A DNA stretch of 64,000 nt, taken from assembly GCA_035473115.1 (NCBI GenBank), contig DATION010000005.1:4399-68398 (forward strand). The letters are read 5' to 3'. Within the stretch, counting starts at the first letter, position 1. Each line of letters opens with the position of its first letter. The notes beneath the pieces were generated by a model, which saw only the letters and a program-made list of their open reading frames with translations, did not search any database and was not told the origin of the DNA. The translations under genes were made by a program, and so were the position numbers. Of the stretch, positions 912 through 64,000 are shown one piece after another. Source of the stretch: Candidatus Udaeobacter sp. Lineage in GTDB: Bacteria; Patescibacteriota; Patescibacteriia; Magasanikbacterales; GWA2-37-8.

Positions 912-1005
912 TGTCATTCCGAACTTTGTGTGAGGAATCTATTCCATAAAGTATAGATCCCTCGTCACCCGCTCTTCGCGAAGAGCGGGTTAACTCGGGA
1001 TGACA
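912..1005 (+). repeat. Palindromic repeat family 1, copy 1 (TGTCATTCCGAA ... CTCGGGATGACA termini with internal hairpins)
   Basis: Near-identical to the reverse complement of 4476-4588 and to 37130-37219. Contains an inner GAGGAATCTAT/ATAGATCCCTC stem and an ACCCGCTCTTCG/CGAAGAGCGGGT hairpin. Lies 4 nt after the tsaD stop and overlaps the dnaE stop. Confidence 0.85.
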
Positions 1006-4000
1006 GTAAGCAATTCATCTTTTAACTCCTCGCAATCTTTAACCAAAAACGAGGTTTTAATTATTTTATCTTCAACTTTTAAAACCACCGGCTTATCCCC
1101 GGGATATTTTTTTAAAACACTTTTTATAGCATCAGCTTTATTTTTTAACTGCTCAGCGCTAACTATTATTTCAAAAGATTCATTTGCATCAAAAGAAACT
1201 TTTGATTCATCTGCTTCTTTTTTAGCATTATTTTGCGCGCCTACAGACATCTGCTTTGCCAAAATCGGAGCGTTTTCCGGCGTAAGCAAATAAGCTTTTT
1301 CTACAAACAACTTATCATCGCCTTCTTCTTCGGAAGTGCGGCCAATCACACAAACCGGTTTGCCTTCCACCCAAACATCAGCAGTAGTTTCATAAGTTTT
1401 CGGAAAGATTAACAACTCCAGATTGCTGGTAGTATCTAAAATTTTGGCAAACATCATGGCTTTGCCGCCGCGAGTGATTTTTTTCTTGGTTGAATCAATC
1501 ATACCCCCAACCACCACCCATTGATTTCTGGACTGACTGGACAAATCTTTAAGCGGAGTCAAAACATCCTTCATTATCTTTTGATAAATTGTAAACGGAT
1601 GCGAAGTAACATACAGACCAAGCAGTTCTTTTTCCCATAAGAGCTTTTCATCTTCACTAGCATTGGGCGCTGAGGCTAATTGAATTTTGGCAGACATATC
1701 TATATTGGTGCCGGCAAATAAAGAATTTTGATTGGCAGGACTTTTTTCATGAATCTGTTTAATAAAAGCCAAAATATTTTCTATATTCCCGGCCAAATAA
1801 CCGCGATCATAACCAAAACAATCCAATGCGCCGCATTTTATCAAACTTTCCAAAGATTTTTTATTCAAATCTCTATCCTGTACTCGGGTAAGCAAATCTT
1901 GCAAATTTTTATATTTACCATTGGCTTTGCGTTCACGATAAATAGCTTCGGCAATATGTTCACCCAGGTTTTTAATGCCATTTAAACCAAAACGGATATG
2001 CGGTTGCGATCCATCTTCGGGAGAAATCATCGCAAAATTCTTAAAGCTTTCGTTGATGTCCGGCGGCAAAACTTTTACTCCCATTCTTTCCGCTTCATAG
2101 ATAACTTCCGGTACTTTATCAATATCACCGCTTTCGGCAATCAAAATAGCGGTCATATATTGCACTGGAAAATTGGCTTTTAGATAAGCGGTCTGATAAG
2201 CCACCACCGCATAACTGGCCGCATGAGCTTTGTTAAAACCATAAGCGGCAAATGGTTCGATGCGCTGCCAAAGATTATTAATCTTCTCCGGCGGCAACTT
2301 GCCAATTTCTTTGGCGCCTTTATAAAACTTTTCTTTCTGCTTAGCCATTTCTTCGGGAATCTTCTTACCCATCGCTTTGCGGAATTTATCGGCTTCTTCC
2401 CAGTTATAACCGGCCAAATTTATCGCTGTAAGCAACACATCGTCTTGATAAACAATTAATCCCAAAGACTGATCCAGATAATCTTTCATTCTCGGATCTT
2501 CGTATTCTATCAACTGCGGATTATTTTTTCTTTGAATATAATCGGGGATAGAATCCATTGGGCCGGGGCGAAACAAAGCCACCATCGCCATGATATCAAA
2601 AATTGAAGTGGGTTTAAGTTCTTTTAAATATCTGGTCATGCCGGAACTGGCCAGCTGAAACACACCAACAGTTTCACCGCGCGCCAACATTTCATAAGTT
2701 TTTTTATCATCCCATGGATACAAATTGTGCACATCAATTTTTTTACCGGTTGTTTTGGCAATAATTTCTACGGCGTGACCTAAAATTGATAAATTGCGAA
2801 TACCCAAAAAATCCATCTTCAAAACTCCGGCTGCTTCCACCGAATGCATTTCGTATTGAGTAATTATTCTTTCACCGCCCGTTTCCAGCTGCACGGGAGT
2901 AAAATCAGTCAAAGGAGTCGGCGAAATAACTACCCCGGCCGCGTGAATAGAAGTATGCCGAGCACAGCCTTCTACTTTTTGCGCCAAGTCCAGCAAACGT
3001 TTGACATCGGCATTTTTTTCATATAACTTTTTTAATTCCGGTTCCAGGTTCAAAGCTTTAGCAATAGTCATCTGAAAACCTTGGGCGCCAAAAGGAATAA
3101 GTTTGGAGACTTGATCACAAAAAGAGTATGGAAAACCCAAAGCTCGCCCCACATCTCGCACTGCTCCGCGCGCGGCCATCGTACCAAAAGTAATAATTTG
3201 CGCCACTTTATCGGCCCCGTATTTTTTAGTTACATAAGCAATCATTTCGTCACGCTTATCATCGGCAAAATCACCATCCACATCCGGCGGGCTAGGACGA
3301 AACGGATTTAAAAATCTTTCAAAAGGAAGTTTAAAAAACAAAGGGTTAACTGTCACAATACCCATAGCATACGAAACTATAGATCCTGCCGCAGATCCTC
3401 TGGTTGTAACCATAATATTGTTATTGCGAGCATAACCAATATAATCAGCTACGGTTAAAAAATACGGCGAGTAGCCTTTGGTCGCGATAATATCCAATTC
3501 ATAATCGACGCGCTTTCTCACTTCATCCGTTATTTCTAGTAATTTTGGCAATTTTTCATATACTTGTTCGCGCAAATACTCATTAGCTGTTTTCCCTTCC
3601 GGAATTTCTATGGCCGGAAAGTGCCACTTGTTTAATTCTAAAACCAAATTGGCACGCTCAGCTATTTTTACGGTATTAGTAATTGCTTCCGGCGTATGTT
3701 TAAAACGATTAATAATATCTTTTGCCGGAGCCAAAGAACAATCAAAGCCGCTCATACTCATACGATTTTCTTCATCCAGCGTCCGGCCGTCTCTGATACA
3801 AGTCAAAATATCTTGCGCTTCGGCATCTTCCGGTTCTAAGTAATGTGAATCGCGAGTAACAATTAACGGAATGCCGGTGTCTTTAGATAGTTGAGCAAGT
3901 TTTGTATTCAATTCCATCTGTCCTTCCAGACCGGGCAGATCCATCATTTCCAAATAAAAATTTCCTTTACCAAAAATTTCTTCGTATTCTAAAGCAACTT

Positions 4001-4481
4001 TTTTAGCTTTGGCATAATTATCTTCTTTGCGTAAAATCCAAGGAATTTCTCCGCTAAAACAGGCCGAAGAAGCAACTAAGCCTTCATGGTATTGTTTTAA
4101 TAATTCTTTATCAATTCTTGGTTTATAATAAAAACCTTCCAAGTTAGACAGAGAAGAAAGTTTCATTAAATTTTTGTAGCCCGTATAATCTAAAGCTAAT
4201 AAAATAAGATGATAATATTTATCGTCTTTATCTTTATCAAAACGGCTACCCGGAGCCAAGTAGGCTTCCATGCCGATAATTGGTTTTATTCCCTCTTTTT
4301 GGCAGCACTCATAAAATTCAATGGCGCCATACATATTGCCATGATCGGTCAGCGCCAAAGCTTTATAACCTAAACTTTTGGCTTTAGACACCAAATCAGG
4401 AATTTTGGATAATCCGTCTAAAAGAGAATAATGGGAGTGAACGTGAAGATGGACAAAATCAGACATACTATTGGTTGTCAT
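990..4481 (-). CDS. dnaE: DNA polymerase III alpha subunit DnaE
   Basis: PHP-domain N-terminus with FVHLHVHSHYSLLDG and full-length polIII alpha homology. The reported ORF has a 29-aa N-terminal extension running through repeat copy 2. The most likely start is ATG 4479-4481 (MTTNSMSDFVH), alternatively 4466 (MSDFVHLHVHS). Confidence 0.9.
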   Translation of the reverse strand: MTTNSMSDFVHLHVHSHYSLLDGLSKIPDLVSKAKSLGYKALALTDHGNMYGAIEFYECCQKEGIKPIIGMEAYLAPGSRFDKDKDDKYYHLILLALDYTGYKNLMKLSSLSNLEGFYYKPRIDKELLKQYHEGLVASSACFSGEIPWILRKEDNYAKAKKVALEYEEIFGKGNFYLEMMDLPGLEGQMELNTKLAQLSKDTGIPLIVTRDSHYLEPEDAEAQDILTCIRDGRTLDEENRMSMSGFDCSLAPAKDIINRFKHTPEAITNTVKIAERANLVLELNKWHFPAIEIPEGKTANEYLREQVYEKLPKLLEITDEVRKRVDYELDIIATKGYSPYFLTVADYIGYARNNNIMVTTRGSAAGSIVSYAMGIVTVNPLFFKLPFERFLNPFRPSPPDVDGDFADDKRDEMIAYVTKKYGADKVAQIITFGTMAARGAVRDVGRALGFPYSFCDQVSKLIPFGAQGFQMTIAKALNLEPELKKLYEKNADVKRLLDLAQKVEGCARHTSIHAAGVVISPTPLTDFTPVQLETGGERIITQYEMHSVEAAGVLKMDFLGIRNLSILGHAVEIIAKTTGKKIDVHNLYPWDDKKTYEMLARGETVGVFQLASSGMTRYLKELKPTSIFDIMAMVALFRPGPMDSIPDYIQRKNNPQLIEYEDPRMKDYLDQSLGLIVYQDDVLLTAINLAGYNWEEADKFRKAMGKKIPEEMAKQKEKFYKGAKEIGKLPPEKINNLWQRIEPFAAYGFNKAHAASYAVVAYQTAYLKANFPVQYMTAILIAESGDIDKVPEVIYEAERMGVKVLPPDINESFKNFAMISPEDGSQPHIRFGLNGIKNLGEHIAEAIYRERKANGKYKNLQDLLTRVQDRDLNKKSLESLIKCGALDCFGYDRGYLAGNIENILAFIKQIHEKSPANQNSLFAGTNIDMSAKIQLASAPNASEDEKLLWEKELLGLYVTSHPFTIYQKIMKDVLTPLKDLSSQSRNQWVVVGGMIDSTKKKITRGGKAMMFAKILDTTSNLELLIFPKTYETTADVWVEGKPVCVIGRTSEEEGDDKLFVEKAYLLTPENAPILAKQMSVGAQNNAKKEADESKVSFDANESFEIIVSAEQLKNKADAIKSVLKKYPGDKPVVLKVEDKIIKTSFLVKDCEELKDELLTVIPS

Positions 4482-4588
4482 CCCGAGTGAACCCGCTCTT
4501 CGCGAAGGGCGGGTGACGAGGGATCTATACCGAATTATTAAATAATAATGTATAGATTCCTCACCCACTATGGGGATTCGGAATGACA
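4476..4588 (-). repeat. Palindromic repeat family 1, copy 2 (inverted relative to copy 1)
   Basis: Reverse complement matches copy 1, including the ACCCGC(C/T)CTTCGCGAAGAGCGGGT hairpin. It carries an extra AT-rich palindromic loop (ATTATTAAATAATAAT). The terminal ...TGTCAT supplies the dnaE ATG. Confidence 0.85.
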
Positions 4589-23297: not shown

Positions 23298-24644
23298 ATG
23301 AAAAGCAATACCATTTTTTCCTGTTCTAACTGCGGCGCTCAATTCCAAAAATGGACTGGGCGCTGTTTAGAATGCGGCAAATGGGGCACAATTACTGAGA
23401 TCCAAGCCACTGCGCAGACTGCCGTGTCTAAAAAAGAACTGGCTTACCCCACAATTGAAACTACAACTTTAGAAAAAATAGACAGTAAAAAATTTACCCG
23501 ACTAAAAACAAACATTGAGGAATTAGATAGAGTTTTGGGCGGCGGTTTAGTACCTGGCTCTATTATTTTACTTGGCGGCGAACCGGGTGTTGGCAAATCA
23601 ACTTTGGCACTGCAGCTGGCCGCTATCATCCCCCATTCTCTTTATATTTCTGGAGAAGAATCGGTGGAACAAATAAAACTGCGGGCCGAACGCTTAAAAA
23701 TTTCTGCTAATACTTTAAAACTCGGCAATTCTACTGCCATAGAAAGTATTATTGAAACTATAAAACAAAATAAAGAATGCAATTTAGCAATTGTTGATTC
23801 TATCCAGACAGTTTATGCGGCCGAAGTGGAAGGCGAAGCTGGCAACATAAACCAAGTCCGCGCCTGTACCACCAAACTTCTGGAGCTGGCAAAATCAACT
23901 AATAAAACGATAATTCTTATCGGCCAAGTAACCAAAGAAGGCACAGTGGCCGGACCAAAAACTTTAGAACATTTGGTCGATGCAGTTTTATATTTAGAAG
24001 GCGATAAATATCATATTTTTCGAATTTTGCGCGCTGCCAAAAACCGCTTTGGCTCCACCGACGAAATCGGCGTATTCTCTATGGAAAGCCATGGCCTGCA
24101 AGAAATAAAAAACCCTTCTGAAGCCTTTCTGGCCGGACGAGGCGAGGCAGTGCCCGGATCAACCATTACCTGTTTAATGGAAGGCAGCCGGCCAGTGCTA
24201 ATAGAAATCCAAGCTCTGGTGACCAAAACAAACTTTGGCTATCCGCAAAGACGAGCTTCAGGATTTGATTTAAATCGTTTGCAGCTGCTGGTTGGAGTTT
24301 TAGGAAAACGCGCTGACTTACCGCTCGATACTTATGATATTTTTCTCAATGTCGTGGGCGGACTGGAAGCTTCCGAGCCAGCCGCAGATTTAGCAGTAGT
24401 TTTGGCTCTGGCTTCAGCTTTAAAAAATAAAGCTATTTCTAAAAACATTGCTTCCTTTGGAGAAGTTGGACTAGGCGGAGAAATCCGGCCGGTTTCGCAA
24501 ACAGAAAAACGCTTAAACGAAATTAAAAAAATGGGATTTGAATTTGCTGTTATTCCATCTTTAAAAAATCCAACTAAAATTTCAGGTCTTAAAATTGCTT
24601 CAGTTAAAAATGTAAAGGAATTGGTGGAACAGGTTTTGAAGTGA
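23298..24644 (+). CDS. radA: DNA repair protein RadA (Sms)
   Basis: N-terminal C4 zinc finger (CSNCGAQF...CLECGKW), a RecA-like Walker A (GGEPGVGKST), and a Lon-like C-terminal domain. Confidence 0.92.
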   Translation: MKSNTIFSCSNCGAQFQKWTGRCLECGKWGTITEIQATAQTAVSKKELAYPTIETTTLEKIDSKKFTRLKTNIEELDRVLGGGLVPGSIILLGGEPGVGKSTLALQLAAIIPHSLYISGEESVEQIKLRAERLKISANTLKLGNSTAIESIIETIKQNKECNLAIVDSIQTVYAAEVEGEAGNINQVRACTTKLLELAKSTNKTIILIGQVTKEGTVAGPKTLEHLVDAVLYLEGDKYHIFRILRAAKNRFGSTDEIGVFSMESHGLQEIKNPSEAFLAGRGEAVPGSTITCLMEGSRPVLIEIQALVTKTNFGYPQRRASGFDLNRLQLLVGVLGKRADLPLDTYDIFLNVVGGLEASEPAADLAVVLALASALKNKAISKNIASFGEVGLGGEIRPVSQTEKRLNEIKKMGFEFAVIPSLKNPTKISGLKIASVKNVKELVEQVLK

Positions 24645-24651
24645 ACGATTT

Positions 24652-24735
24652 AATAGGTGCTAATTTTTTTGTTTCCAAATGCCCTGCGGGCACCCTCCCG
24701 AGGGCGCGATGGAAACTGCTAAAATTGGCACCTAT
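24652..24735. repeat. Palindromic repeat family 2, copy C (inverted orientation) flanked by the 9-bp IR AATAGGTGC/GCACCTATT
   Basis: Its core CCAAATGCCCTGCGGGCACCCTCCCGAGGGCGCGATGG is the reverse complement of the copy A/B cores. The element is 84 nt, the same size as copy B. Confidence 0.65.
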
Positions 24736-24747
24736 TAAATTTAAAAA

Positions 24748-24821
24748 CTAAAATAAATAATAATTTTGCAGTGGCCATGCGATTATGCTCATTGGACACA
24801 AAAAATTATTATTTATTTTAG
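24748..24821 (-). terminator. Long hairpin (perfect 20-bp AT-rich IR with a 34-nt loop holding a partial family-2 core), likely the recG terminator
   Basis: CTAAAATAAATAATAATTTT pairs with AAAATTATTATTTATTTTAG. On the minus strand the hairpin is followed by a T-rich run. It sits immediately 3' of recG. Confidence 0.5.
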
Positions 24822-24838
24822 TTTTGATTTCCAGACCC

Positions 24839-26920
24839 CTATTCCAAATGGGTTTTATTCTCCCAATCTTTTACTTTTGCTAAAACCTGTGGAAAATCTT
24901 TTAAATTTAAAATAATACTTTTGGCCGCATCGCGGGCTTTTTTTATCAAATCTCTGTCGGTTAATTTGGCTAAATGCAAGTTCATTTCTCCGCTTTGCTC
25001 TTTGCCATAAACTTCTCCTGGACCACGTATTTCCAAATCTTTTTCCGCTAATTTAAAGCCGTCACTGGTTTGTTCAAAAAACTTTAATCTTTCTAAAGAT
25101 CGTTGAGAGTTTGTGTTGGTAAATAATAAACAATAAGATTGATGCTGCGACCGGCCTACCCGACCACGAAACTGATGCAGCTGTGCCAAACCAAAACTTT
25201 CCGCGCCCTCAATCATCATAATACTAGCATTAGGAATATCTATCCCAACTTCAATTACGGAAGTGGCGACCAATAAATCCAAACTACCCGATTTAAACTT
25301 AGCCATTACTCCTTCTTTTTCGAGAGGCTTTAGTTTGCCATGTAAAAAACCAATCCTTAAATCGGGAAAAATATTTTCTGATAATTTTTTATACTCAGCC
25401 ATCACAGTTTTTTTCTCAACGCCAAATAAAGAAAAATCTAAACCAGCTGGCTTTTTGTCTTCCTCAGCATCTTTGCTTTCTTCTATAAGCGGACAGACAA
25501 TAAAGGCTTGTCTGCCTTTTTTGATTTGCTCTTGGATAAAATCATACGCCTTGCTTCTATTAGCTGGTTCAACCACTCGAGTAATAATTTTTTTCCGTCC
25601 CGGCGGCAACTCATTAATAATAGAAATATCTAAATCTCCATAAATAACCAAGGCCAAAGACCGAGGAATTGGTGTAGCTGTCATGCTCAAAAAATGTACA
25701 CCCAAACCTTTTTGCTTGATTAACTTTCTTTGCTCTACGCCAAAACGGTGCTGTTCATCTACAATTACTAAGCCGAGTTTTTTAAAATTAACATTGTCTG
25801 TCAATAAAGCATGCGTGCCAACAATAATATTTATTTCTCCGCTATTTACCCGGCCAACAATTTCTTTTTTTACTTTAGCTGTTTGACTACCAGTCAACAA
25901 ACCAATATTTATATTTAACTTACTAAATAATTTGGTTAAAGATTGATAATGCTGTTGAGCCAAAATTTCTGTTGGCGCCATTAGCGCTACTTGATAACCA
26001 TTTAAAAAAGCATCATACGCTGCTATAGCTGCCACCACTGTTTTTCCGGAGCCAACATCTCCGGAAACCAAACGATTCATTGGTTTGGTTTTAGCAATAT
26101 CCTGTAAAATTTCCCAAGTAGAAATTTTTTGTGACTTAGTTAAAGTAAATGGCAAAGATTGTATAAAATCCTTAATTTTATCTTCCTTAAAAATTATTGG
26201 CGCAGCTTGCGCGGCTGATCTTTCCTGCCTAGCCAGCTCTGCTTGCAGCTGAACTAAAAATAACTCATCAAACTTTAACCTGTCAGTGCTTAATTTGAGA
26301 TCTTTATCATCTATGGGGAAATGAATACCTCGCAAAGCGCTTGCTAGCGGTGCCAAATCAGCTTGCTCCAAAACACTTTCCGGCAGCCACTCTTTTATTT
26401 TATCCGCTAAATCTAAAGATTGTTTAATCAAAAACCGAATCTGCTTTTGCGTTAAACCATGAGTAGTCGAATAAATTGGCACCAAGCGCGCAGTGTGAGT
26501 ATTTTTATCTTTAGAAAACTTCTCATAAATTGGACTGGTCAACTTTGGCCCCAACATATCAACCTGAACTTTCCCAGACAAATAGACAATATCTCCGACT
26601 TGCAGATTTTTGGTTATGAACGGTTGATTGAACCAAACTATTCGCAATGAACCGCTCTTATCCGAAACCAAAGCTTCGGTAATTGTTTTGCGGCTGCGAA
26701 AACTTTTTTTATTGGCAATCAACTCTACCTGACCACAAATAGTTACCATTTGTCCGGCTTGCAACTGTGCAATCGGTAAAATAGTTCGGTAATCTTCATA
26801 ACGGAAAGGAAAATAATACAACAAATCCTTGGCAGTTTTAACTCCAAGGTAGGCAAATTTTTTAGCTGTTTTTTTACCCACTCCTCCCAGTTCGGATATT
26901 GAAGTATTAAAATCTAGCAT
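24839..26920 (-). CDS. recG: ATP-dependent DNA helicase RecG
   Basis: Wedge domain, helicase motifs (GDVGSGKT, DEQHRFG). The ORF is trimmed to MLDFNTSISELGGVG. Confidence 0.9.
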   Translation of the reverse strand: MLDFNTSISELGGVGKKTAKKFAYLGVKTAKDLLYYFPFRYEDYRTILPIAQLQAGQMVTICGQVELIANKKSFRSRKTITEALVSDKSGSLRIVWFNQPFITKNLQVGDIVYLSGKVQVDMLGPKLTSPIYEKFSKDKNTHTARLVPIYSTTHGLTQKQIRFLIKQSLDLADKIKEWLPESVLEQADLAPLASALRGIHFPIDDKDLKLSTDRLKFDELFLVQLQAELARQERSAAQAAPIIFKEDKIKDFIQSLPFTLTKSQKISTWEILQDIAKTKPMNRLVSGDVGSGKTVVAAIAAYDAFLNGYQVALMAPTEILAQQHYQSLTKLFSKLNINIGLLTGSQTAKVKKEIVGRVNSGEINIIVGTHALLTDNVNFKKLGLVIVDEQHRFGVEQRKLIKQKGLGVHFLSMTATPIPRSLALVIYGDLDISIINELPPGRKKIITRVVEPANRSKAYDFIQEQIKKGRQAFIVCPLIEESKDAEEDKKPAGLDFSLFGVEKKTVMAEYKKLSENIFPDLRIGFLHGKLKPLEKEGVMAKFKSGSLDLLVATSVIEVGIDIPNASIMMIEGAESFGLAQLHQFRGRVGRSQHQSYCLLFTNTNSQRSLERLKFFEQTSDGFKLAEKDLEIRGPGEVYGKEQSGEMNLHLAKLTDRDLIKKARDAAKSIILNLKDFPQVLAKVKDWENKTHLE

Positions 26921-27156
26921 AATAATGCGGTTATTATAGCATAAAATAGACAATATAATAGCTATGTTAAGGCAAATTTGATACATTGACAAAACTCATA
27001 ATTTGTGTTACTATTATTTGTTGCTCTTTTTATCCGCATAAACTTCCTAGCGCTGTATTCATTATAAAATAGTAAATATAGCAATAGGGAGTTTTGCTAC
27101 AAAAAACAGCTTGAAGCAACAACTCTAAAGATGAGTTGTCAAATAAGGAGAGCGCT

Positions 27157-37129: not shown

Positions 37130-37219
37130 TGTCATTCCGAATCCCCACTCAGGGGGTGAGGAATCTATTCATTTTAAAGTAAAGATCCCTCGTCGGCTAC
37201 GGCCTCACTCGGGATGACA
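37130..37219 (+). repeat. Palindromic repeat family 1, copy 3
   Basis: TGTCATTCCGAA...TGAGGAATCTAT...AGATCCCTCGTC...CTCGGGATGACA. Its terminal GGGATGACA creates a spurious upstream ATG for nusG. Confidence 0.85.
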
Positions 37220-41999: not shown

Positions 42000-42072
42000 G
42001 CGCCTGTAACTCATCGGTTAGAGTGCCACCCTTATAAGGTGGAAGCAGATGGTTCGATTCCATCCAGGCGCA
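42000..42072 (+). tRNA. tRNA with anticodon UAU (tRNA-Ile, AUA-decoding)
   Basis: Hand-folded cloverleaf: acceptor GCGCCTG/CAGGCGC, D arm ACTC/GAGT, anticodon stem CCACC/GGTGG with loop CTTATAA (U33, UAU, A37), T arm GATGG-TTCGATT-CCATC, discriminator A. No encoded CCA. Confidence 0.75.
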
Positions 42073-42097
42073 CAAAACTTGTATTTTCTCTAAAAAA

Positions 42098-56622: not shown

Positions 56623-58044
56623 ATGAAAAAACTGGAACTTGTTTTAGCTTTTATCCAGCTGCCTCTGGACTATATAATGATTACTCTAGCCGGAATAACC
56701 GCTTATACTTTACGTTTTACCGCCACCAGCCAAAATATCCGCCCGGTTTTATTTAATTTAGCTTGGGAAAAATACTGGCCTCTGGTTTTACTTACCGCCT
56801 TAGGCTGGATTATTATTTTTGCTTTGGCCGGACTCTACAATACTTATCCCAATCGCAAGCTGGCCAGTGATCTAACGCGGGTGATCTTTGCCTGTTCGAC
56901 CGGTTTTGCCGCTATTACTATTTACGTTTTTTTTACTCTGCAAAAATTTGATTCCCGTTTTTTAGTCCTGGCCAGCTGGATTTTAGCGATAATTTATGTT
57001 TCTATCGGACGAATTTTAATGAACGGCTTAAAAAAACTTTTATACCGAGCCGGTTTTGGTTTACGACAAACAGTTTTAATCGGCAAAAAAGCTATCTCTG
57101 AACAGATTAAAGAAGCTATCAATTTACGACCGGGTTTGGGTTATAAATTAGTTAGCATCTATGAGCACTTTGATGATCAGACAAGTTTATCTATTTTAAA
57201 AAATAATCCGGATGAGATAATCTTTACTGATCCGAAAGCCAATGAGTTCGAAGTTCTGCAAGCGATAGAATTTGCCAATGAACATCATATTATTTTTAAA
57301 TATTCAGCGGATCTATTTTCTACTATTTCTACCAATATGGCCGTCAGCACAATTGCCGGCATTCCAATTATCGAACTGCGCCTGACTCGCCTGACCGGCT
57401 GGAATAGAATTATCAAAAGATTTTTTGATGTGGTTGGCAGTTTATTTTTAATAATTTTATTTTTACCGCTGCTGGTTGCGATTTATTTAGCAATTATCAT
57501 TGAGACCGGCTTCCCGGTAATTTATAAAAATGAACGCGTCGGCCAAAACGATAGAAAATTTTTCACTTTAAAATTTCGCTCAATGTATAAAAAAGATAGC
57601 ACCGGCCCACAGTTCGGCCAGCAAGGCGAAGAAGCTTTGCGCCAAGAACAAGAACTCATTGCCACACAAAACAGCAAATCCGGCCCGATTTACAAAATAA
57701 AAAATGATCCCCGTATTACTCCGTTTGGCAAATTTATCAGACGCTGGAGCCTGGATGAACTGCCACAATTTTTTAATGTTTTAAAAGGTGAAATGAGCTT
57801 GGTTGGGCCGCGCCCGCATCAGCCGCGCGAAGTAAGCGGCTATGAACGCCGACACAAAATCATCCTGGCCATCAAACCCGGCATTACCGGTTTATCGCAA
57901 ATTTCCGGACGCAGTAATTTAAGCTTTGAAGAAGAGATGAACTTAGATACATTTTATATTGAAAACTGGAGTATATATATGGATTTAATTATTTTATTTA
58001 AAACTCCATTTATTGTTTTAACCAGAAAAGGTTCCATTATTTAG
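56623..58044 (+). CDS. Polyprenyl-phosphate sugar phosphotransferase (bacterial sugar transferase, WbaP/CpsE-like initiating enzyme)
   Basis: Five N-terminal TM helices and a C-terminal catalytic domain (LVGPRPHQPRE...KPGITGLSQISGRSNLSFEE). Confidence 0.85.
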   Translation: MKKLELVLAFIQLPLDYIMITLAGITAYTLRFTATSQNIRPVLFNLAWEKYWPLVLLTALGWIIIFALAGLYNTYPNRKLASDLTRVIFACSTGFAAITIYVFFTLQKFDSRFLVLASWILAIIYVSIGRILMNGLKKLLYRAGFGLRQTVLIGKKAISEQIKEAINLRPGLGYKLVSIYEHFDDQTSLSILKNNPDEIIFTDPKANEFEVLQAIEFANEHHIIFKYSADLFSTISTNMAVSTIAGIPIIELRLTRLTGWNRIIKRFFDVVGSLFLIILFLPLLVAIYLAIIIETGFPVIYKNERVGQNDRKFFTLKFRSMYKKDSTGPQFGQQGEEALRQEQELIATQNSKSGPIYKIKNDPRITPFGKFIRRWSLDELPQFFNVLKGEMSLVGPRPHQPREVSGYERRHKIILAIKPGITGLSQISGRSNLSFEEEMNLDTFYIENWSIYMDLIILFKTPFIVLTRKGSII

Positions 58045-58050
58045 AATAAT

Positions 58051-59169
58051 ATGCGCATTGCTTTGGTACATGATTATCTGGCGCAAGATGGTGGCGCCGA
58101 AAGAGTTTTAAAAACCATGCATGAAATATGGCCGGAAGCGCCAATTTTTGTTTTATTCCATGATAAAAATAAAATAAAATTTTTTGATGACAAAAATATT
58201 CAAGAATCTTTTTTAGCCAACCTGCCTTTTAGCAACTCGTTTTATCAATGGTATCTGCCCTGGATGCCGCTGGCTACCGAACAGCACAACTTAAAAGATT
58301 TTGACGTGGTAATTTCTACGGCTAGCATGTTTGCCAAAGGTGTAATTACCGGGCCAAACACACTGCATATTTCTTACTGCCATACACCGCCCCGCTTTTT
58401 GTGGGCCGACAACCACAACTACATTGCTGATTTAAAACAAAATAATTTCATTAAATTTATCTTGCCTCATTTTATTCATCGACTGCGAATTTGGGACAAA
58501 ATGAGCGTAGACCGAGTAGACCATTTCGTGGCCAATTCACGCACTGTTCAACAAAGAATCAATAAATATTACCGCCGTGAAAGCGAAGTGATTTATCCTC
58601 CGGTCGAACTTACCTCCTGCTCTTTGCAAAAAACCGGCGACTACTATGCCGCTGGCGGCAGACTGGTTGGCTACAAAAGGTTTGATTTGATTGTTAAAGC
58701 TTTTAACCGGCTAAAATGGCCGCTAAAAATTTTTGGCGACGGGCCGGAACTGAAAAAACTTAAAAAAATAGCCAAAGATAATATAGAATTTTTGGGACAA
58801 ATTTCTGATGAAGAAAAATACGGTATTCTGGCCGGCGCGCGCGCCTTTATCCATCCCCAACTGGAAGATTTTGGCATTACAGCCGTAGAGGCGATGGCTT
58901 GCGGCCGGCCGGTAATTGCTTTTTCTCAGGGCGGAGCTACCGAAACGGTTGTTAACAATGAAACCGGAGTATTTTTTCATGCGCAAACTTGGGAGTCTTT
59001 GCTGGACAAACTTTTGCATTTTAATTATGAAAATTGGGACAGCGGTAAAATCCGCGAACAGGCCGCCAAATTTGGCTCAATATACTTTAAAACCAACCTG
59101 CAAAAATATGTGGCCGACCGATACGAAGAATTCAGTAAAGGATTTAATCAGCAATCTCTAATCGGTTAA
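58051..59169 (+). CDS. Glycosyltransferase family 4
   Basis: EDFGITAVEAMACGRPVIAF (E-x7-E region). Confidence 0.8.
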   Translation: MRIALVHDYLAQDGGAERVLKTMHEIWPEAPIFVLFHDKNKIKFFDDKNIQESFLANLPFSNSFYQWYLPWMPLATEQHNLKDFDVVISTASMFAKGVITGPNTLHISYCHTPPRFLWADNHNYIADLKQNNFIKFILPHFIHRLRIWDKMSVDRVDHFVANSRTVQQRINKYYRRESEVIYPPVELTSCSLQKTGDYYAAGGRLVGYKRFDLIVKAFNRLKWPLKIFGDGPELKKLKKIAKDNIEFLGQISDEEKYGILAGARAFIHPQLEDFGITAVEAMACGRPVIAFSQGGATETVVNNETGVFFHAQTWESLLDKLLHFNYENWDSGKIREQAAKFGSIYFKTNLQKYVADRYEEFSKGFNQQSLIG

Positions 59170-59171
59170 TT

Positions 59172-60371
59172 ATGAAAAAGATCGGCATTGATATTCGTTG
59201 CTTAATGTCTCCGCTGCGCGCCGGCGTGGGTGAATATACCCACGAACTGCTGAGCGCTATTTTTAAGCTTGATAAAGAAAACCAGTATTGGCTTTTTTAT
59301 AATTCCCATACAGATGTCTTTGCCCATATTCCACTTTGGTCAGGAAGCAATATTCATTATGTAGCCACCAAATGGCCGAACAAACTATTTAACGCTTTTA
59401 TAAAAATATTTGGCTGGCCAAAACTGGATAAATTAATTTCCCGCAACGGCAAGCTGGATTATTTTTTTTCACCCAACTTTAATTTTACGGCCTTATCCAA
59501 AGATACAAAAAATATTTTAACTGTCCATGATTTATCATTTAAATTTTTTCCACAATTTTTCTCCTTAAAACAAAAATTATGGCACTGGGCAATAAACCCA
59601 AAAAAACAGTGTCAACAAGCCAGTTTTATAATTACTCCTTCGGAAAATACCAAACGGGATATTGTGGATTATTATAAAATCCCAGCAGAAAAAATAAAAG
59701 TTGCGGGCGGCGGTTTATCGGGAATTTTCGTCTGTCATTCTGAGCGTAGCGAAGAATCCCTTAAACCAAGCCAAAGGGATCCTTCGGTCGCTTCACTCTC
59801 TCAGGATGACATACGAAAAAAATATAATTTACCAAATAAATTTATTCTCTGTTTGGGAGCGGTTGAATCGCGAAAAAATATCATTGGCTTAATTGAAGCT
59901 TTTGAAAAATTTTCCAAAACTACAACGGGCTATTCTTTGGTAATTGCCGGCAGTGGCCGAGGCTGGAAAAATAAAAAAATATACGCTCGAGCTTTGGCTT
60001 CACCGCTGCGCAATAATATCGAATTTATCGGTTATGTGGATGCGCAAGATAAGCCAACTCTATACTCTATGTCTGAACTGTTTGTTTATCCAAGTTTTTA
60101 TGAAGGATTTGGTTTTCCGGTTTTGGAGGCCATGGCCTGCGGTGTGCCGGTAATAACTTCTAACCGATCTTCTTTGCCGGAAATTACCGAAGGCGCAGCC
60201 TATTTAATTAACCCCAACCGCCCAGCTGAAATCGCTGCAGCAATTACAAAACTGATTTCTGACACAAAGCTACGAGAATATTTTATAAAAAAAGGACTAG
60301 AGCAGGTTAAGAAATTTAGTTGGCAAGCCGCAGCTCAAAAATGGCTAGATATTTTAAATAAATCAACTTAA
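59172..60371 (+). CDS. Glycosyltransferase family 4 carrying an in-frame palindromic-element insertion
   Basis: EGFGFPVLEAMACGVPVITS. An extra ~27 aa (VCHSERSEESLKPSQRDPSVASL) sits between the two Rossmann halves and is encoded by repeat copy 4. Confidence 0.8.
   Translation: MKKIGIDIRCLMSPLRAGVGEYTHELLSAIFKLDKENQYWLFYNSHTDVFAHIPLWSGSNIHYVATKWPNKLFNAFIKIFGWPKLDKLISRNGKLDYFFSPNFNFTALSKDTKNILTVHDLSFKFFPQFFSLKQKLWHWAINPKKQCQQASFIITPSENTKRDIVDYYKIPAEKIKVAGGGLSGIFVCHSERSEESLKPSQRDPSVASLSQDDIRKKYNLPNKFILCLGAVESRKNIIGLIEAFEKFSKTTTGYSLVIAGSGRGWKNKKIYARALASPLRNNIEFIGYVDAQDKPTLYSMSELFVYPSFYEGFGFPVLEAMACGVPVITSNRSSLPEITEGAAYLINPNRPAEIAAAITKLISDTKLREYFIKKGLEQVKKFSWQAAAQKWLDILNKST
59733..59811 (+). repeat. 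Palindromic repeat family 1, copy 4, inserted in-frame inside the GT4 coding sequence
   Basis: TGTCATTCTGAG...GAAGAATCCCTT...AAGGGATCCTTC...CTCAGGATGACA. Its terminal stems show compensatory changes relative to copies 1-3 (CCGA/TCGG becomes CTGA/TCAG). Confidence 0.8.
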
Positions 60372-60377
60372 AATTTT

Positions 60378-61490
60378 ATGCCAAAAATCCTCATTCTTCA
60401 CGACTATTTCCTCTATAAAGGCGGCGGCGAAAGGCTCGTAATTAGCCTAGCCAAAAACCTTGGCGCAGATATTGCTACGGCTTTTATCGCCAAAGACGCT
60501 TTTGATCCGCGAGAGAGTGATATAAAAACAATTGAGCTATACAAAGAAAAACCTTGGTCGCGCCTACCCGGATTTAGGTATCTGCAAGTACAATTTTCTT
60601 TTTTATTTAAAACCAAATTTGCTCAAAATTACGACACTATAATCTATAGCGGCGATTGCCTCATAGCGCTTTTACGATTACAAAATAAAAAAAATATCGC
60701 CTATATGCATACTCCGCCGCGGCACTTATACGATGCTTATGAAGAACGCTTGAGTTCATACCCGCTCTGGAAAAAAATAATCTTCGTACCGTTTGTTTTA
60801 TTCAATCGCTGGCGTTTTAAATTTTTAGCCACAAAACTAGATACAATTGTTACTAACTCCAAAAATACCCAAGCTAGAATAAAAACATATTTGGGGTTAA
60901 ATTCAGTCGTAGTTTATCCGCCTTGTGATACTTTGCCATTTAAAAATCTTGGCAACGAAGGATACTTCTTTTCTTGGGCGCGGCTGTATCCGATTAAAAG
61001 AGTCGATAAAATTGTCGAAGCGTTTATTGGTTTGCCGGATAAAAAATTAATTATCGCTTCTAGCGGCCCGGATCTGGAAAAAATCAAAAGCCTGGCCGCT
61101 GGCCACCCAAATATTACAATTCTTGGCTGGATAAATGATGAACAATTATTAAATTACCTCGGAAAATGTCTAGCCACCATTTATATCCCAATCCGCGAAG
61201 ATTTTGGCATGAGTGCGGTTGAGTCTATGCAAGCCGGTAAACCGGTAATTGGCGTAGCTGAAGGCGGATTATTAGAAATTATTAATGACAACAAAAACGG
61301 CCTGCTGCTTGAACCAGATTTTGATTTAGCCAACTTACGCGAAACAATTAACCAAATGACTCCGAATTTGGCTAAAACAATGGAAAATAACTGCTATGAA
61401 ACAGCCAAAAAATTTAGCGAACAAACTTTTATTACAGGCATGAAAAATGTCATCTATGCACATAGTCCATTATCCAAAAAAGTGGTATAA
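60378..61490 (+). CDS. Glycosyltransferase family 4
   Basis: EDFGMSAVESMQAGKPVIGV. Confidence 0.8.
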   Translation: MPKILILHDYFLYKGGGERLVISLAKNLGADIATAFIAKDAFDPRESDIKTIELYKEKPWSRLPGFRYLQVQFSFLFKTKFAQNYDTIIYSGDCLIALLRLQNKKNIAYMHTPPRHLYDAYEERLSSYPLWKKIIFVPFVLFNRWRFKFLATKLDTIVTNSKNTQARIKTYLGLNSVVVYPPCDTLPFKNLGNEGYFFSWARLYPIKRVDKIVEAFIGLPDKKLIIASSGPDLEKIKSLAAGHPNITILGWINDEQLLNYLGKCLATIYIPIREDFGMSAVESMQAGKPVIGVAEGGLLEIINDNKNGLLLEPDFDLANLRETINQMTPNLAKTMENNCYETAKKFSEQTFITGMKNVIYAHSPLSKKVV

Positions 61491-61520
61491 TAAGTGTGTA
61501 TTTTTTGATAGTAAATATCA

Positions 61521-64000
61521 ATGCCTAAACGAGCAAAAAAACTAAACTTGCGGCACTGCGCTCTCTGCCAAAAAGTTGGCCATAATAAATCAACTTGCCC
61601 AACTAACAAGCAAACATTCCCAGAACCGGCGCAGCTTTCCATAAGCACAGAAAAAAAGGCATCTCAACCGCTTAAATTTTTTGTGCACCATGTCAACTAC
61701 AATGACCACCAATCCCCTCATCTCATTAATCTCAAAGAACACAAAGATAATTTATATGAAACCATAGAAGCGGTCGCACCCGCAGAAGAAACTGACTCAT
61801 ATCTTTATCAGAACTCATCAGCCAAAAATAAAACCCCAAATCTTGCGCCTTCATTTTCTACAAAAACTAGTTCTGCCAACACTCCGTCTATACCATCTCC
61901 AAAAGAAATAACCTCTGCAAATTTTGCCAAACAAACATCTGCGCCAAAGCTTTATAACTTTAAACAAAACACCAAAACTATCGCCGATAAGCTGCTGGCC
62001 ATTGCCGCTCCCAAACATTTGGTTAGCGCCGCTTTGTTAATTTTATTTGTATTATTTGTCCCAACCAAAGCCCGCACCTATTATTTTGATCTAAAATCCA
62101 CTGCTGACACCGTGGCCAACCACAGCACTGCCGGATTTTCATCTCTGCACGATTCCACCTCGGCGCTAATTAAAGGCGACATTGCTGGCGCTCAAGGATC
62201 CTTAACCAACGCCTTACAAAGCTTTGATCAAGCGGTCACTGTTTTAAACAGCCAGCACCAGCTTTTACAAAAAATCGCCGCCGCAGTGCCAATAATGAAC
62301 AATGAAATTAAAAGCCGAGAAAAATTAATTACCGCCGGCCAAGAAATCTCTTTGGGCAATACTTACCTGCTCAAAGGCTTATCAGAAATTAATACCAACA
62401 GTTCTACTATCACCGAAAACCTGAAATCCCTTGGCAACCACCTGGAATACTCCTTGCCTCACTACCGCACAGCTTTGGCTGATTTACAAAAAGTTGATTC
62501 CGATGTTCTGCCCTTTGAATATCAAAGTACTTTCAAAGAATTCCGCATACTTTTTAACGCTTATGTCGGTGATTTAGAAAATATCGCCAAACTTGATAGC
62601 ACCATCCAAGAAGTATTTGGCGGCCAAGGATTGCGCCGCTATTTATTAATCTTCCAAAACCCGGCTGAACTGCGGCCAACCGGAGGTTTTATGGGCAGTT
62701 TTGCTTTGCTCGATATTAAAGACGGCCAGATAGTAAAAATAGATATTCCAGCCGGAGGAACTTACGATCTGCAAGGACAACTAACCGAATACGTAATTCC
62801 ACCTACTCCTCTTTTGTTGTCCAACAAACGCTGGGAATTCCAAGATGCCAACTGGTTTCCTGATTTTCCAGCCAGTGCCAAAAAAATACTCTGGTTTTAC
62901 CGCCACAGCCGCAACTTAACTGCCGACGGAGTTATTTCGATAAACGCCAATGTACTCAACAGACTTCTCTCCATAATAGGACCAATTGCCGAACAAAATC
63001 ATAATATCGTTATTGATCAAAAAAATGCTTTGGATACAATTCAAAATATTGTCGAATACGGATCAGAAAAAAAAGAAAATAAACCAAAGCAAGTTATCTC
63101 TGACTTAGCGCCAGTGTTTATTGATAATTTCAAACAAATGAAGGCAGGCGCTATTTTGCCGATGCTGACAAACCTGCAGGAAGCTTTACAGCAAAAAGAG
63201 ATCCAATCCTATTTTACCGACGAAAATACCGAAAACACCATCAAAGAATTCGGCTGGAGCGGTGAGATTTTTAAAACCAATCCAGACCAAGATTATTTAC
63301 TCGTTGTAAATACCAATATCCAAGGACAAAAAAGTGATGCCAAAATAAAACAGACAATCAGCCATCAAGCTGTGGTTCAGCCGGACGGCACTATTTTAGA
63401 TAGCGTAGTTATCACCAGAGAACATACTGGCAACCCTGAAGAAAAAATGTATGGCCAAACCAATATAGACTACTTGCGACTTTATGTGCCAGCTGGCAGT
63501 GAACTGGTAAAGGCTAGCGGCTTTATCTGGCCTGATGAACAAAAATTCAAAGCTCCGGAAAACTGGTATAAAAAAGACGCAATGCTTAGCGACACAGAAA
63601 AAGAAACTAGCATTGATAGCCAGTCCGGCACCCGTATTACCGACGAATTTGGTAAAACAGCTTTTGCTAATTGGATAATTACCGAACCTGGCCAGACTAA
63701 TCAAGTCCAATTTATCTACAAACTGCCGTTTAAAGCTTGGGAACAGCCAACTGACGCCAACCTAAGCAGCTGGGCAAAAATTTTCCAATCCGAAATACCA
63801 ACTTCAAAATACCAGCTCGTAGCGCAAAAACAATCCGGTATTACCAGTAATTTTGATAGCCAAATAATTTATCCTGAAGGCTGGTCTCCTATCTGGCAAG
63901 ACGGCAACGGAATAACACTAGCAACAAACGGCGCAGCCATTAACCAAACCGAATTAAATACCGACAATGTCTGGAGTTTAGTAATGAAAAAAAATAGCAA
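61521..64000 (+). CDS. DUF4012-domain membrane protein with an N-terminal CCHC zinc-knuckle-like motif; 3' end outside window
   Basis: Absent from the ORF track because no stop falls in the window. Hand translation from the ATG at 61521 is open to position 64000 (more than 826 aa). Features: C-x2-C-x4-H-x4-C (CALCQKVGHNKSTC), the TM segment LVSAALLILFVLFV, and the DUF4012-like motif LLIFQNPAELRPTGGFMGSFALLDIKDG. Confidence 0.7.
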   Translation, partial: MPKRAKKLNLRHCALCQKVGHNKSTCPTNKQTFPEPAQLSISTEKKASQPLKFFVHHVNYNDHQSPHLINLKEHKDNLYETIEAVAPAEETDSYLYQNSSAKNKTPNLAPSFSTKTSSANTPSIPSPKEITSANFAKQTSAPKLYNFKQNTKTIADKLLAIAAPKHLVSAALLILFVLFVPTKARTYYFDLKSTADTVANHSTAGFSSLHDSTSALIKGDIAGAQGSLTNALQSFDQAVTVLNSQHQLLQKIAAAVPIMNNEIKSREKLITAGQEISLGNTYLLKGLSEINTNSSTITENLKSLGNHLEYSLPHYRTALADLQKVDSDVLPFEYQSTFKEFRILFNAYVGDLENIAKLDSTIQEVFGGQGLRRYLLIFQNPAELRPTGGFMGSFALLDIKDGQIVKIDIPAGGTYDLQGQLTEYVIPPTPLLLSNKRWEFQDANWFPDFPASAKKILWFYRHSRNLTADGVISINANVLNRLLSIIGPIAEQNHNIVIDQKNALDTIQNIVEYGSEKKENKPKQVISDLAPVFIDNFKQMKAGAILPMLTNLQEALQQKEIQSYFTDENTENTIKEFGWSGEIFKTNPDQDYLLVVNTNIQGQKSDAKIKQTISHQAVVQPDGTILDSVVITREHTGNPEEKMYGQTNIDYLRLYVPAGSELVKASGFIWPDEQKFKAPENWYKKDAMLSDTEKETSIDSQSGTRITDEFGKTAFANWIITEPGQTNQVQFIYKLPFKAWEQPTDANLSSWAKIFQSEIPTSKYQLVAQKQSGITSNFDSQIIYPEGWSPIWQDGNGITLATNGAAINQTELNTDNVWSLVMKKNS

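Follow-up and report, generated by a model that had tools for sequence, protein, structure and literature searches.

Palindromic repeats that are carried inside bacterial coding sequences have been described under several names, and the closest described system is the superfamily of repetitive extragenic palindromes (REPs) that carry a CGTC tag, reported from five phyla and with no dedicated transposase known (Di Nocera, De Gregorio and Rocco, 2013, BMC Genomics 14:522; PMC3733652). These units have an unpaired 4-nt tag, with CGTC often changed to TGTC and CCTC also allowed, a stem of 8-9 bp that starts with A-T, a loop of 4-5 nt and a CCA tail; most pair up as inverted dimers able to form a single long hairpin, and the units lie at the 3' ends of genes, where they sometimes provide the stop codon (PMC3733652). 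Over half of the intragenic CGTC REPs are dimers or groups that encode 20-30 amino acids, in several phyla, different REPs occupy the same site in Xanthomonas recB genes, and CGTC-1 and CGTC-4 of R. conorii are the Rickettsia elements RPE-6 and RPE-4 (PMC3733652). Here we describe a 79-nt palindrome, TGTC...GACA, at positions 59733-59811 of a 64,000-nt stretch of contig DATION010000005.1 (assembly GCA_035473115.1), referred to below as the window, where it lies in frame within a GT4 glycosyltransferase gene. Its observed features, together with its absence from the nearest ortholog, fit a non-autonomous REP-type doublet that is tolerated as a disordered linker loop, a reading to which we assign a probability of about 0.8.

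Three other systems invite comparison. Rickettsia palindromic elements (RPEs; Ogata et al., 2000, 2002) are, as reviewed in PMC10969869, in-frame palindromes that have entered housekeeping genes of unrelated kinds and that the protein fold accommodates; in-frame fusions through small repeats are known, with Rickettsia as the extreme case (PMC10969869). REPINs, or REP doublets forming hairpins, consist of an inverted REP pair with a spacer, are predicted to form a hairpin in single-stranded DNA or mRNA, and replicate as the doublet (Bertels and Rainey, 2011, PLoS Genet; PMC3116915). [quoted passage not shown]

Anatomy and affinities of the element

The element starts with TGTCAT at 59733, closes with ATGACA at 59811 and reads TGTCATTCTGAGCGTAGCGAAGAATCCC-TTAAACCAAGCCAAA-GGGATCCTTCGGTCGCTTCACTCTCTCAGGATGACA. 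Rather than a simple palindrome, it is a REP doublet (a REPIN-like heterodimer): its two hairpin units stand inverted to each other, each with its TGTC end outward. The left unit (59733-59760, plus strand) comprises the TGTC tag, an ATTCT/AGAAT stem, a GA-GCGTAGC-GA core and a CCC tail, and is identical to a 26-mer, TGTCATTCTGAGCGNAGCGAAGAATC, known from many phyla. The unit spans nine stem positions, only 5+2 of which are Watson-Crick pairs; a tandem G-A/A-G separates these two sets, and the loop is a 3-nt GNA. The GCGNAGC core presumably corresponds to the very stable d(GCGNAGC) mini-hairpin of Hirao and colleagues; as single-stranded DNA or RNA the unit reads TGTCATTCTGAGCGAAGCGAAGAATC. The right unit (59776-59811, read on the minus strand) has the TGTC tag, an ATCCT/AGGAT stem, a CCC tail and a longer, irregular interior, and stands two transitions away from a common partner unit, GATCCTTCGGTCGCTTCGCTCCCTCAGGATGACA. 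Between the units lies the 15-nt spacer TTAAACCAAGCCAAA (59761-59775), which with the CCC/GGG tails makes up the top of the long hairpin and which had no exact match in the Joint Genome Institute (JGI) metagenomes.

Folded as RNA, the 79 nt form one long hairpin of -41.5 kcal/mol (z = -7.7), a stability reached by 0 of 200 shuffled sequences, and folded as DNA they reach -18.6 kcal/mol (z = -5.2); the palindrome is far above chance expectation. Two of the three forward frames of the element are free of stops, and none of the reverse frames is. No direct repeat or target-site duplication was found flanking the element, the flanks TTTTCGTC and ATACGAAAA being mutually inverted, not direct. A search of Rfam with 59650-59900 matched no family even at E <= 10, and across the whole window it matched only RNase P RNA and two tRNAs. 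An intrinsic terminator was also considered at this position and ruled out, because no T-run follows any sense-strand stem.

Compared with the CGTC REPs, the element shares a TGTC tag, a stem that begins with AT, the inverted dimer and its occurrence in multiple copies, and, as for that superfamily, no dedicated transposase flanks it by gene clustering or tblastn. It differs in the core, which has five Watson-Crick pairs followed by GA-GCGNAGC-GA, in tails that are CCC or CTA instead of CCA, and in its patescibacterial host, which is outside the five reported phyla. By the published description of the CGTC/TGTC-tagged superfamily, it appears best filed as a further family and not as one of the four already known. 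The GT4 element is in this sense one more case of a known phenomenon, published earlier as intragenic REP dimers of 20-30 amino acids.

The likeness to RPEs, which the initial annotation had drawn as an analogy, is closer than was supposed, through the identity of RPE-6 and RPE-4 with CGTC-1 and CGTC-4 (PMC3733652). Both are in-frame, fold-compatible palindromic insertions in hosts with reduced genomes; the present element belongs to another genus and another sequence family, is 79 nt long against about 100-150 bp for the classic RPE-1, and is likened to RPEs by description only. As the host is Patescibacteria-like, strict membership of the RPEs is not claimed. With REPINs it has in common the inverted pair with a spacer, the single hairpin and identical doublets beside different flanks; REPINs, however, are tagged with GTAG, extragenic and accompanied by a cognate RAYT transposase gene flanked by REPs, whereas here the tag is TGTC, one copy is intragenic and no RAYT was found in the window or in about 1 Mb of flanking sequence. 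Like MITEs and ERIC elements it is a small non-autonomous repeat in frame, but MITEs have terminal inverted repeats derived from insertion sequences as well as target-site duplications, and since neither is seen here the element is not a MITE.

The insert in the host protein and among its orthologs

The host gene (59172-60371, plus strand) is an intact, uninterrupted ORF for a 399-residue GT4 glycosyltransferase of the GT-B fold, with a translation that includes ...GIFVCHSERSEESLKPSQRDPSVASLSQDDIRKKY... and ...GIFVCHSERSEESLKPSQRDPSVASLSQDDIRKKYNLP... and with all family-invariant residues present. The element occupies codons C188-D213 and the first base of I214. The initial annotation had placed an in-frame palindrome at exactly these positions in this gene, and the letters, the ORF and the translation all agree with it, including the peptide that it quoted. 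Tryptic peptides that read through the element are predicted to be SEESLKPSQR and DPSVASLSQDDIR.

Pfam assigns residues 18-178 to Glyco_transf_4 (E = 2.8e-41) and residues 211-375 to Glycos_transf_1 (E = 2.7e-09). In an AlphaFold model computed with 54 orthologs as input, the mean predicted local distance difference test score (pLDDT) is 90.6; the insert is the only place where confidence falls, successive 10-residue blocks across residues 181-210 averaging 74, 53 and 57; the insert is modelled between the last strand of the N-terminal domain (175-177) and the first helix of the C-terminal domain (211-218). Foldseek relates the model to the solved GT-B GT4 enzymes MshA, BshA, WaaG and PimA at probability 1.0, and all 59 invariant alignment columns are retained, including E311 and E319 of the E-x7-E region. 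In the model the insert is thus a low-confidence surface loop between the two Rossmann domains, with the catalytic motifs intact, and both the Pfam boundaries and the pLDDT profile uphold the earlier proposal of a linker between the GT-B halves and a loop location. The element is, as far as the model goes, compatible with the fold, in frame at a fold-tolerant position as in RPEs, and the additional flexible loop most likely leaves the working of the enzyme unchanged. The gene is the third in an envelope-polysaccharide operon (56623-64000, plus strand) of Bac_transf, GT4, GT4 with the insert, GT4 and a DUF4012 gene that continues past the window end. This gene order is shared with the loci of related proteins, and because the synteny is common to them the comparisons that follow were taken as comparisons between orthologs.

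The closest ortholog (P0002, locus L001) has 84% amino acid and 80% nucleotide identity and is without the element: its linker, SEIF-NKPTFDKQK-IKQKY, is aligned with SGIF-V+26 residues-IRKKY in the window protein. The gain of about 27 residues that had been claimed is accordingly correct as the length of the segment V187-D213 and not as a net change, as these 27 residues replace the nine of NKPTFDKQK and lengthen the linker by only 18. Most of the 30 closest orthologs have a short linker. Related doublets are found at the same linker in three orthologs (P0006 at locus L002, with the peptide CHSEKSEESL...RDPSS...LGMT; P0015 at locus L003, with VIPTKVEESL...RDPSAALGMT; and P0010), and half-elements are present in P0003 and P0030. 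The expectation that the insert is absent elsewhere thus holds for the nearest and most of the close orthologs and fails for these three; in the ortholog alignment the segment is not uniformly present, and its repeat-like letters stand.

In more distant orthologs this linker is occupied by peptides of other palindrome families, namely VILSEAKNL...LRMT, HPELVSGS...KQVQHD, CHCE...PRND, VIPAKAGIQ and CHFE...GMT, and orthologs also have inserts in two further loops, one around residue 90 and one around residue 250; in all, the loops of this GT4 family have received repeats of at least five or six families. Peptides encoded by REPs and listed in the supplementary table of the 2013 study include VIPAKAGI, SFPRKRES, CHSRESGNP, RHSELVSGS and ...AGMT (PMC3733652). 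Two of these peptides, VIPAKAGI(Q) and SFPRKRES, are found unchanged among the GT4 orthologs, and six of the seven residues of PELVSGS agree with RHSELVSGS. By a strict regular expression, dimer peptides occur in 17 of the 120 best ortholog matches, and the window protein brings the minimum to 18. The inserts at L002, L003, L125 and L126 were confirmed as palindromes in the DNA, with TGTCAT...ATGACA ends in the linkers of L002 and L003. The 459-residue ortholog P0093 (L125, 3001-4380) contains three in-frame doublets in three loops, all of them DNA palindromes with TGTCAT...ATGACA ends. Because the linker has been occupied repeatedly by palindromes it is evidently tolerant of them, in line with the suggestion made from the window alone that the position tolerates insertions. 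Locus L126 has a canonical doublet in its GT4 ortholog and a second one in the next GT4 gene; this second doublet (L126, 11320-11407), in frame near the N-terminus of the downstream protein, has its arm order reversed, so that its sense-strand mismatches are C-A instead of G-U.

Repeats are well known for misleading assemblers, and the exact window protein is recorded in NCBI from a single contig, so a mis-assembly that joined repeat reads, or a GT4 pseudogene that is still open, has to be weighed. Against such an artefact or dead gene, related doublets stand at this codon position in assemblies made independently from other samples, frame, start, stop and all family-invariant residues are intact, and the operon synteny is conserved. 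An assembly error, which the initial annotation had named as a possible refutation, is unlikely in view of the related inserts in those assemblies, and we regard this explanation as a whole as very improbable. The contig is labelled 'Candidatus Udaeobacter sp.' (Verrucomicrobiota), all close relatives of the window protein are labelled Patescibacteria, Parcubacteria or Magasanikbacteria, the synteny of the operon points to the same groups, and the window has a GC content of 39.7%. The contig is probably mis-binned or mislabelled as Udaeobacter.

The hairpin itself might alternatively have been selected for a function in cis at the domain boundary, either as a translational pause that allows separate folding of the Rossmann domains or as an RNase or mRNA-stability element in the operon transcript. 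Consistent with this, all arm differences in the GT4 copies of the window, L002, L003 and L126 are G-U pairs on the sense strand, the hairpin is kept in three diverged orthologs, and its position is exactly between the two domains. Most orthologs nevertheless do without the hairpin, other loops and other repeat families are used elsewhere, the preference for G-U on the sense strand is only 6:2 in a wider sample and not significant, with the neighbouring GT4 gene of L126 as a counter-example, and the sense strand has no terminator-like site. We consider such a function unlikely.

A non-autonomous REP-type doublet tolerated as a linker loop would imply the following course of events. The hairpin-forming doublet would have arrived by mobilization through an enzyme acting in trans, and a copy would have come to rest between the two Rossmann domains, among linker codons rich in A/T and in lysine, with a stop-free frame and a net change that preserved the reading frame. 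Because the copy is stop-free in two of its forward frames and the frame is kept, the ribosome would read through it; the 26 encoded residues would form a disordered surface loop that disturbs neither domain, for which reason selection would not have removed the element. The protein would be made and active, and the element would be a tolerated passenger and not an adaptation.

Several observations weigh against this account. No mobilizing gene turned up in the window or in flanking sequence by clustering of neighbouring genes or by tblastn. The insertion, moreover, is not clean, since there is no target-site duplication; the 79 nt are not a multiple of three, and about nine linker codons are missing relative to L001. 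Finally, the insert-bearing window, L002 and L003 share an identical 17-nt right flank, GACATACGAAAAAAATA (window 59812-59828), which points to common ancestry or to recombination of the linker, and not to fresh transposition in the window lineage.

Accordingly, the same element may have had another history, in which a single ancestral insertion, or recombination of the linker between lineages, was followed by loss or replacement in most relatives, L001 included, with no independent gain. To this history, to which we give a little less than an even chance, the shared flank and the same left-unit frame in the window, L002 and L003 lend support, as does the motif next to the insert: among close orthologs, [RQ]KKY follows every right-hand unit and K[QSE]KY is found in every protein without one, a pattern at 59812-59828 that suggests linker recombination or remodelling of the flank coupled to insertion. 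Around the linker, and only there, the window gene is nearer to L002 and L003 than to L001. In the remainder of the gene, however, it is nearest to the insert-less L001 (80% nucleotide identity vs 73% for the others), and in a neighbour-joining tree with the linker masked the insert-bearers are scattered among insert-less sisters (pairs P0001-P0002, P0010-P0005 and P0003-P0004), a pattern that favours several insertion events. The right units also differ in type, with an ATCCT stem and a TTCGGTCGC core in the window and an ATCCC stem with a CGTCGGC core in L002 and L003, and the window copy is near consensus, whereas those of L002 and L003 are more eroded. The element may thus be a recent independent gain with remodelling of the linker, or an older insertion that was spread or lost by recombination, its repeat held near consensus through conversion from other copies.

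Distribution of the unit across phyla

Exact copies of the 26-mer TGTCATTCTGAGCGNAGCGAAGAATC are present in no fewer than 120 genome contigs (L005-L124) from many phyla. Its hosts include Nitrospirota, Chloroflexota, Acidobacteriota, Bacteroidota (with cultured Pedobacter and Mucilaginibacter), Ignavibacteria, Planctomycetota, Verrucomicrobiota, Bacillota, Desulfobacterota, Alpha- and Gammaproteobacteria, Cyanobacteria (with cultured Calothrix), Armatimonadota, Gracilibacteria and Saccharimonadales, and it mostly forms the outer arm of doublets whose centre varies. Across all collected loci, the unit pattern GTC-N5-GAGCGNAGCGA-N5 was found in 218 units, and the N5 segments are perfectly complementary in 205 of them; for the 47 units with a stem other than the ascertained ATTCT/AGAAT, 34 are perfectly complementary and represent seven stem variants, among them ATCCT/AGGAT, ACCCT/AGGGT, ATTCC/GGAAT and ATGCT/AGCAT. 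Because the variation in the stem is compensatory, the unit hairpin is taken to be maintained.

The heterodimer of left and right units as in the window is present in 22 JGI metagenome contigs (L127-L148) with GC contents of 0.37-0.67. In one metagenome sample, identical 76-nt doublets, spacer included, adjoin three different left flanks, as would fit a doublet that is copied as a unit. On a 37%-GC contig (L142, 3593-3678) the heterodimer lies in frame in a gene for NAD(P)HX dehydratase (PF01256) and encodes VILSAAKNPIGYSKRAGDPSVASLSQDD, in which DPSVASLSQDD is the same as in the C-terminal half of the window insert. Outside contigs resembling the candidate phyla radiation (CPR), intragenic copies are rare: 10 of 143 units are in long stop-free frames, about three of them in credible genes such as RsmE. 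A HMMER search with a 31-residue insert gave seven matches at E <= 1e-3, the query being too short for the spread to be judged from them.

The 5' flanks of the 143 units have no conserved target. All-versus-all clustering of 2087 ORFs showed no gene family recurring beside these units in 120 loci beyond housekeeping genes, and tblastn with three RAYT/TIRYT queries found none in the window (best E = 0.18, noise) or in about 1 Mb of flanking sequence of 144 loci. A GIY-YIG protein, suggested by what lies upstream in L003, was also considered as a partner and received no support. String searches of the literature for the unit sequence and its peptides found no relevant paper, and a literature search for REPs, MITEs or palindromic repeats in Patescibacteria or CPR bacteria found no report, which accords with the earlier remark that no description of such insertions had been seen for Patescibacteria-like genomes.

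One possible but doubtful interpretation of this distribution is that the TGTC-tagged doublets are a single, still active mobile family that extends across most bacterial phyla and that, in Patescibacteria, has colonized coding sequence at a frequency like that in Rickettsia, with repeated use of the same permissive loops and up to three doublets in one 459-residue protein. Lineage-specific insertions in CPR proteins would then have, in selfish palindromes, a major source that has gone unreported. The identity of the 26-mer across phyla with no associated enzyme restates the problem left open in 2013, namely what moves CGTC-type REPs.

For the host gene itself the insertion is of little consequence, and its interest lies in REP-type palindromes being read as protein in Patescibacteria. 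For annotation, inserts of this kind and small ORFs such as 'VILSEAKNL...LRMT' are to be treated as repeat-derived; when CPR proteins are aligned or placed in trees the inserts do not constitute homologous characters, and in structure prediction they yield low-confidence loops. The element also bears on whether gene-dense reduced genomes, such as those of Rickettsia and the CPR, favour the intragenic survival of selfish repeats.

Further repeats and RNA genes in the window

The 64 kb hold four outward-tagged TGTC heterodimers (912-1005, 4476-4588, 37130-37219 and 59733-59811), which makes the GT4 element the fourth copy, as originally counted. All eight of their units start with TGTC, and the terminal motif GTCATYCTGAG, with at most one mismatch, was counted six times in the window, where 0.87 would be expected. 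A generic scan for GTCA plus a 5-bp hairpin was unspecific (31 matches vs 25 in shuffled sequence), and its matches are informative only within the TGTCAT[TC]C subset.

The remaining three doublets lie at gene boundaries, as is usual for REPs, and are set apart as a subfamily by stems of ATTCC and ATCCC and by CTA tails; across the family, tails are CCC in the GT4 doublet of the window, and L126 and the remaining window copies have CTA or CTT. The first (912-1005) lies between a convergent ORF (24-908) and dnaE, the second (4476-4588) is upstream of dnaE and has a nested CGTC-tagged hairpin in one of its units, and the third (37130-37219) is directly upstream of nusG. The dnaE ORF (990-4568, minus strand) terminates in ...LLTVIPS*, and because its final four codons and TAA stop are within a TGTC-tagged unit (990-1005), its C-terminus and stop codon are supplied by the repeat. 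The listed GTG start of dnaE at 4568 falls within the upstream doublet, and the true start is probably elsewhere. Nested CGTC-tagged hairpins (CGTC-ACCCGC-TCTTCGCGAAGA-GCGGGT) are found at 964-990 and 4491-4517, in loops of the units that flank dnaE, as repeats within a repeat.

Two AT-rich inverted repeats that are unrelated to the TGTC family are found at 24648-24825, between ORFs 23298-24644 (plus strand) and 24839-26992 (minus strand); one has 20-nt arms that are 95% complementary and the other 24-nt arms that are 100% complementary. The window also encodes a tRNA-Ile with the anticodon TAT (UAU) at 42000-42073, an ARAGORN prediction that Rfam also recognized as a tRNA; a UAU tRNA-Ile is an uncommon reader of AUA in bacteria, where the lysidine-modified CAU anticodon is usual.

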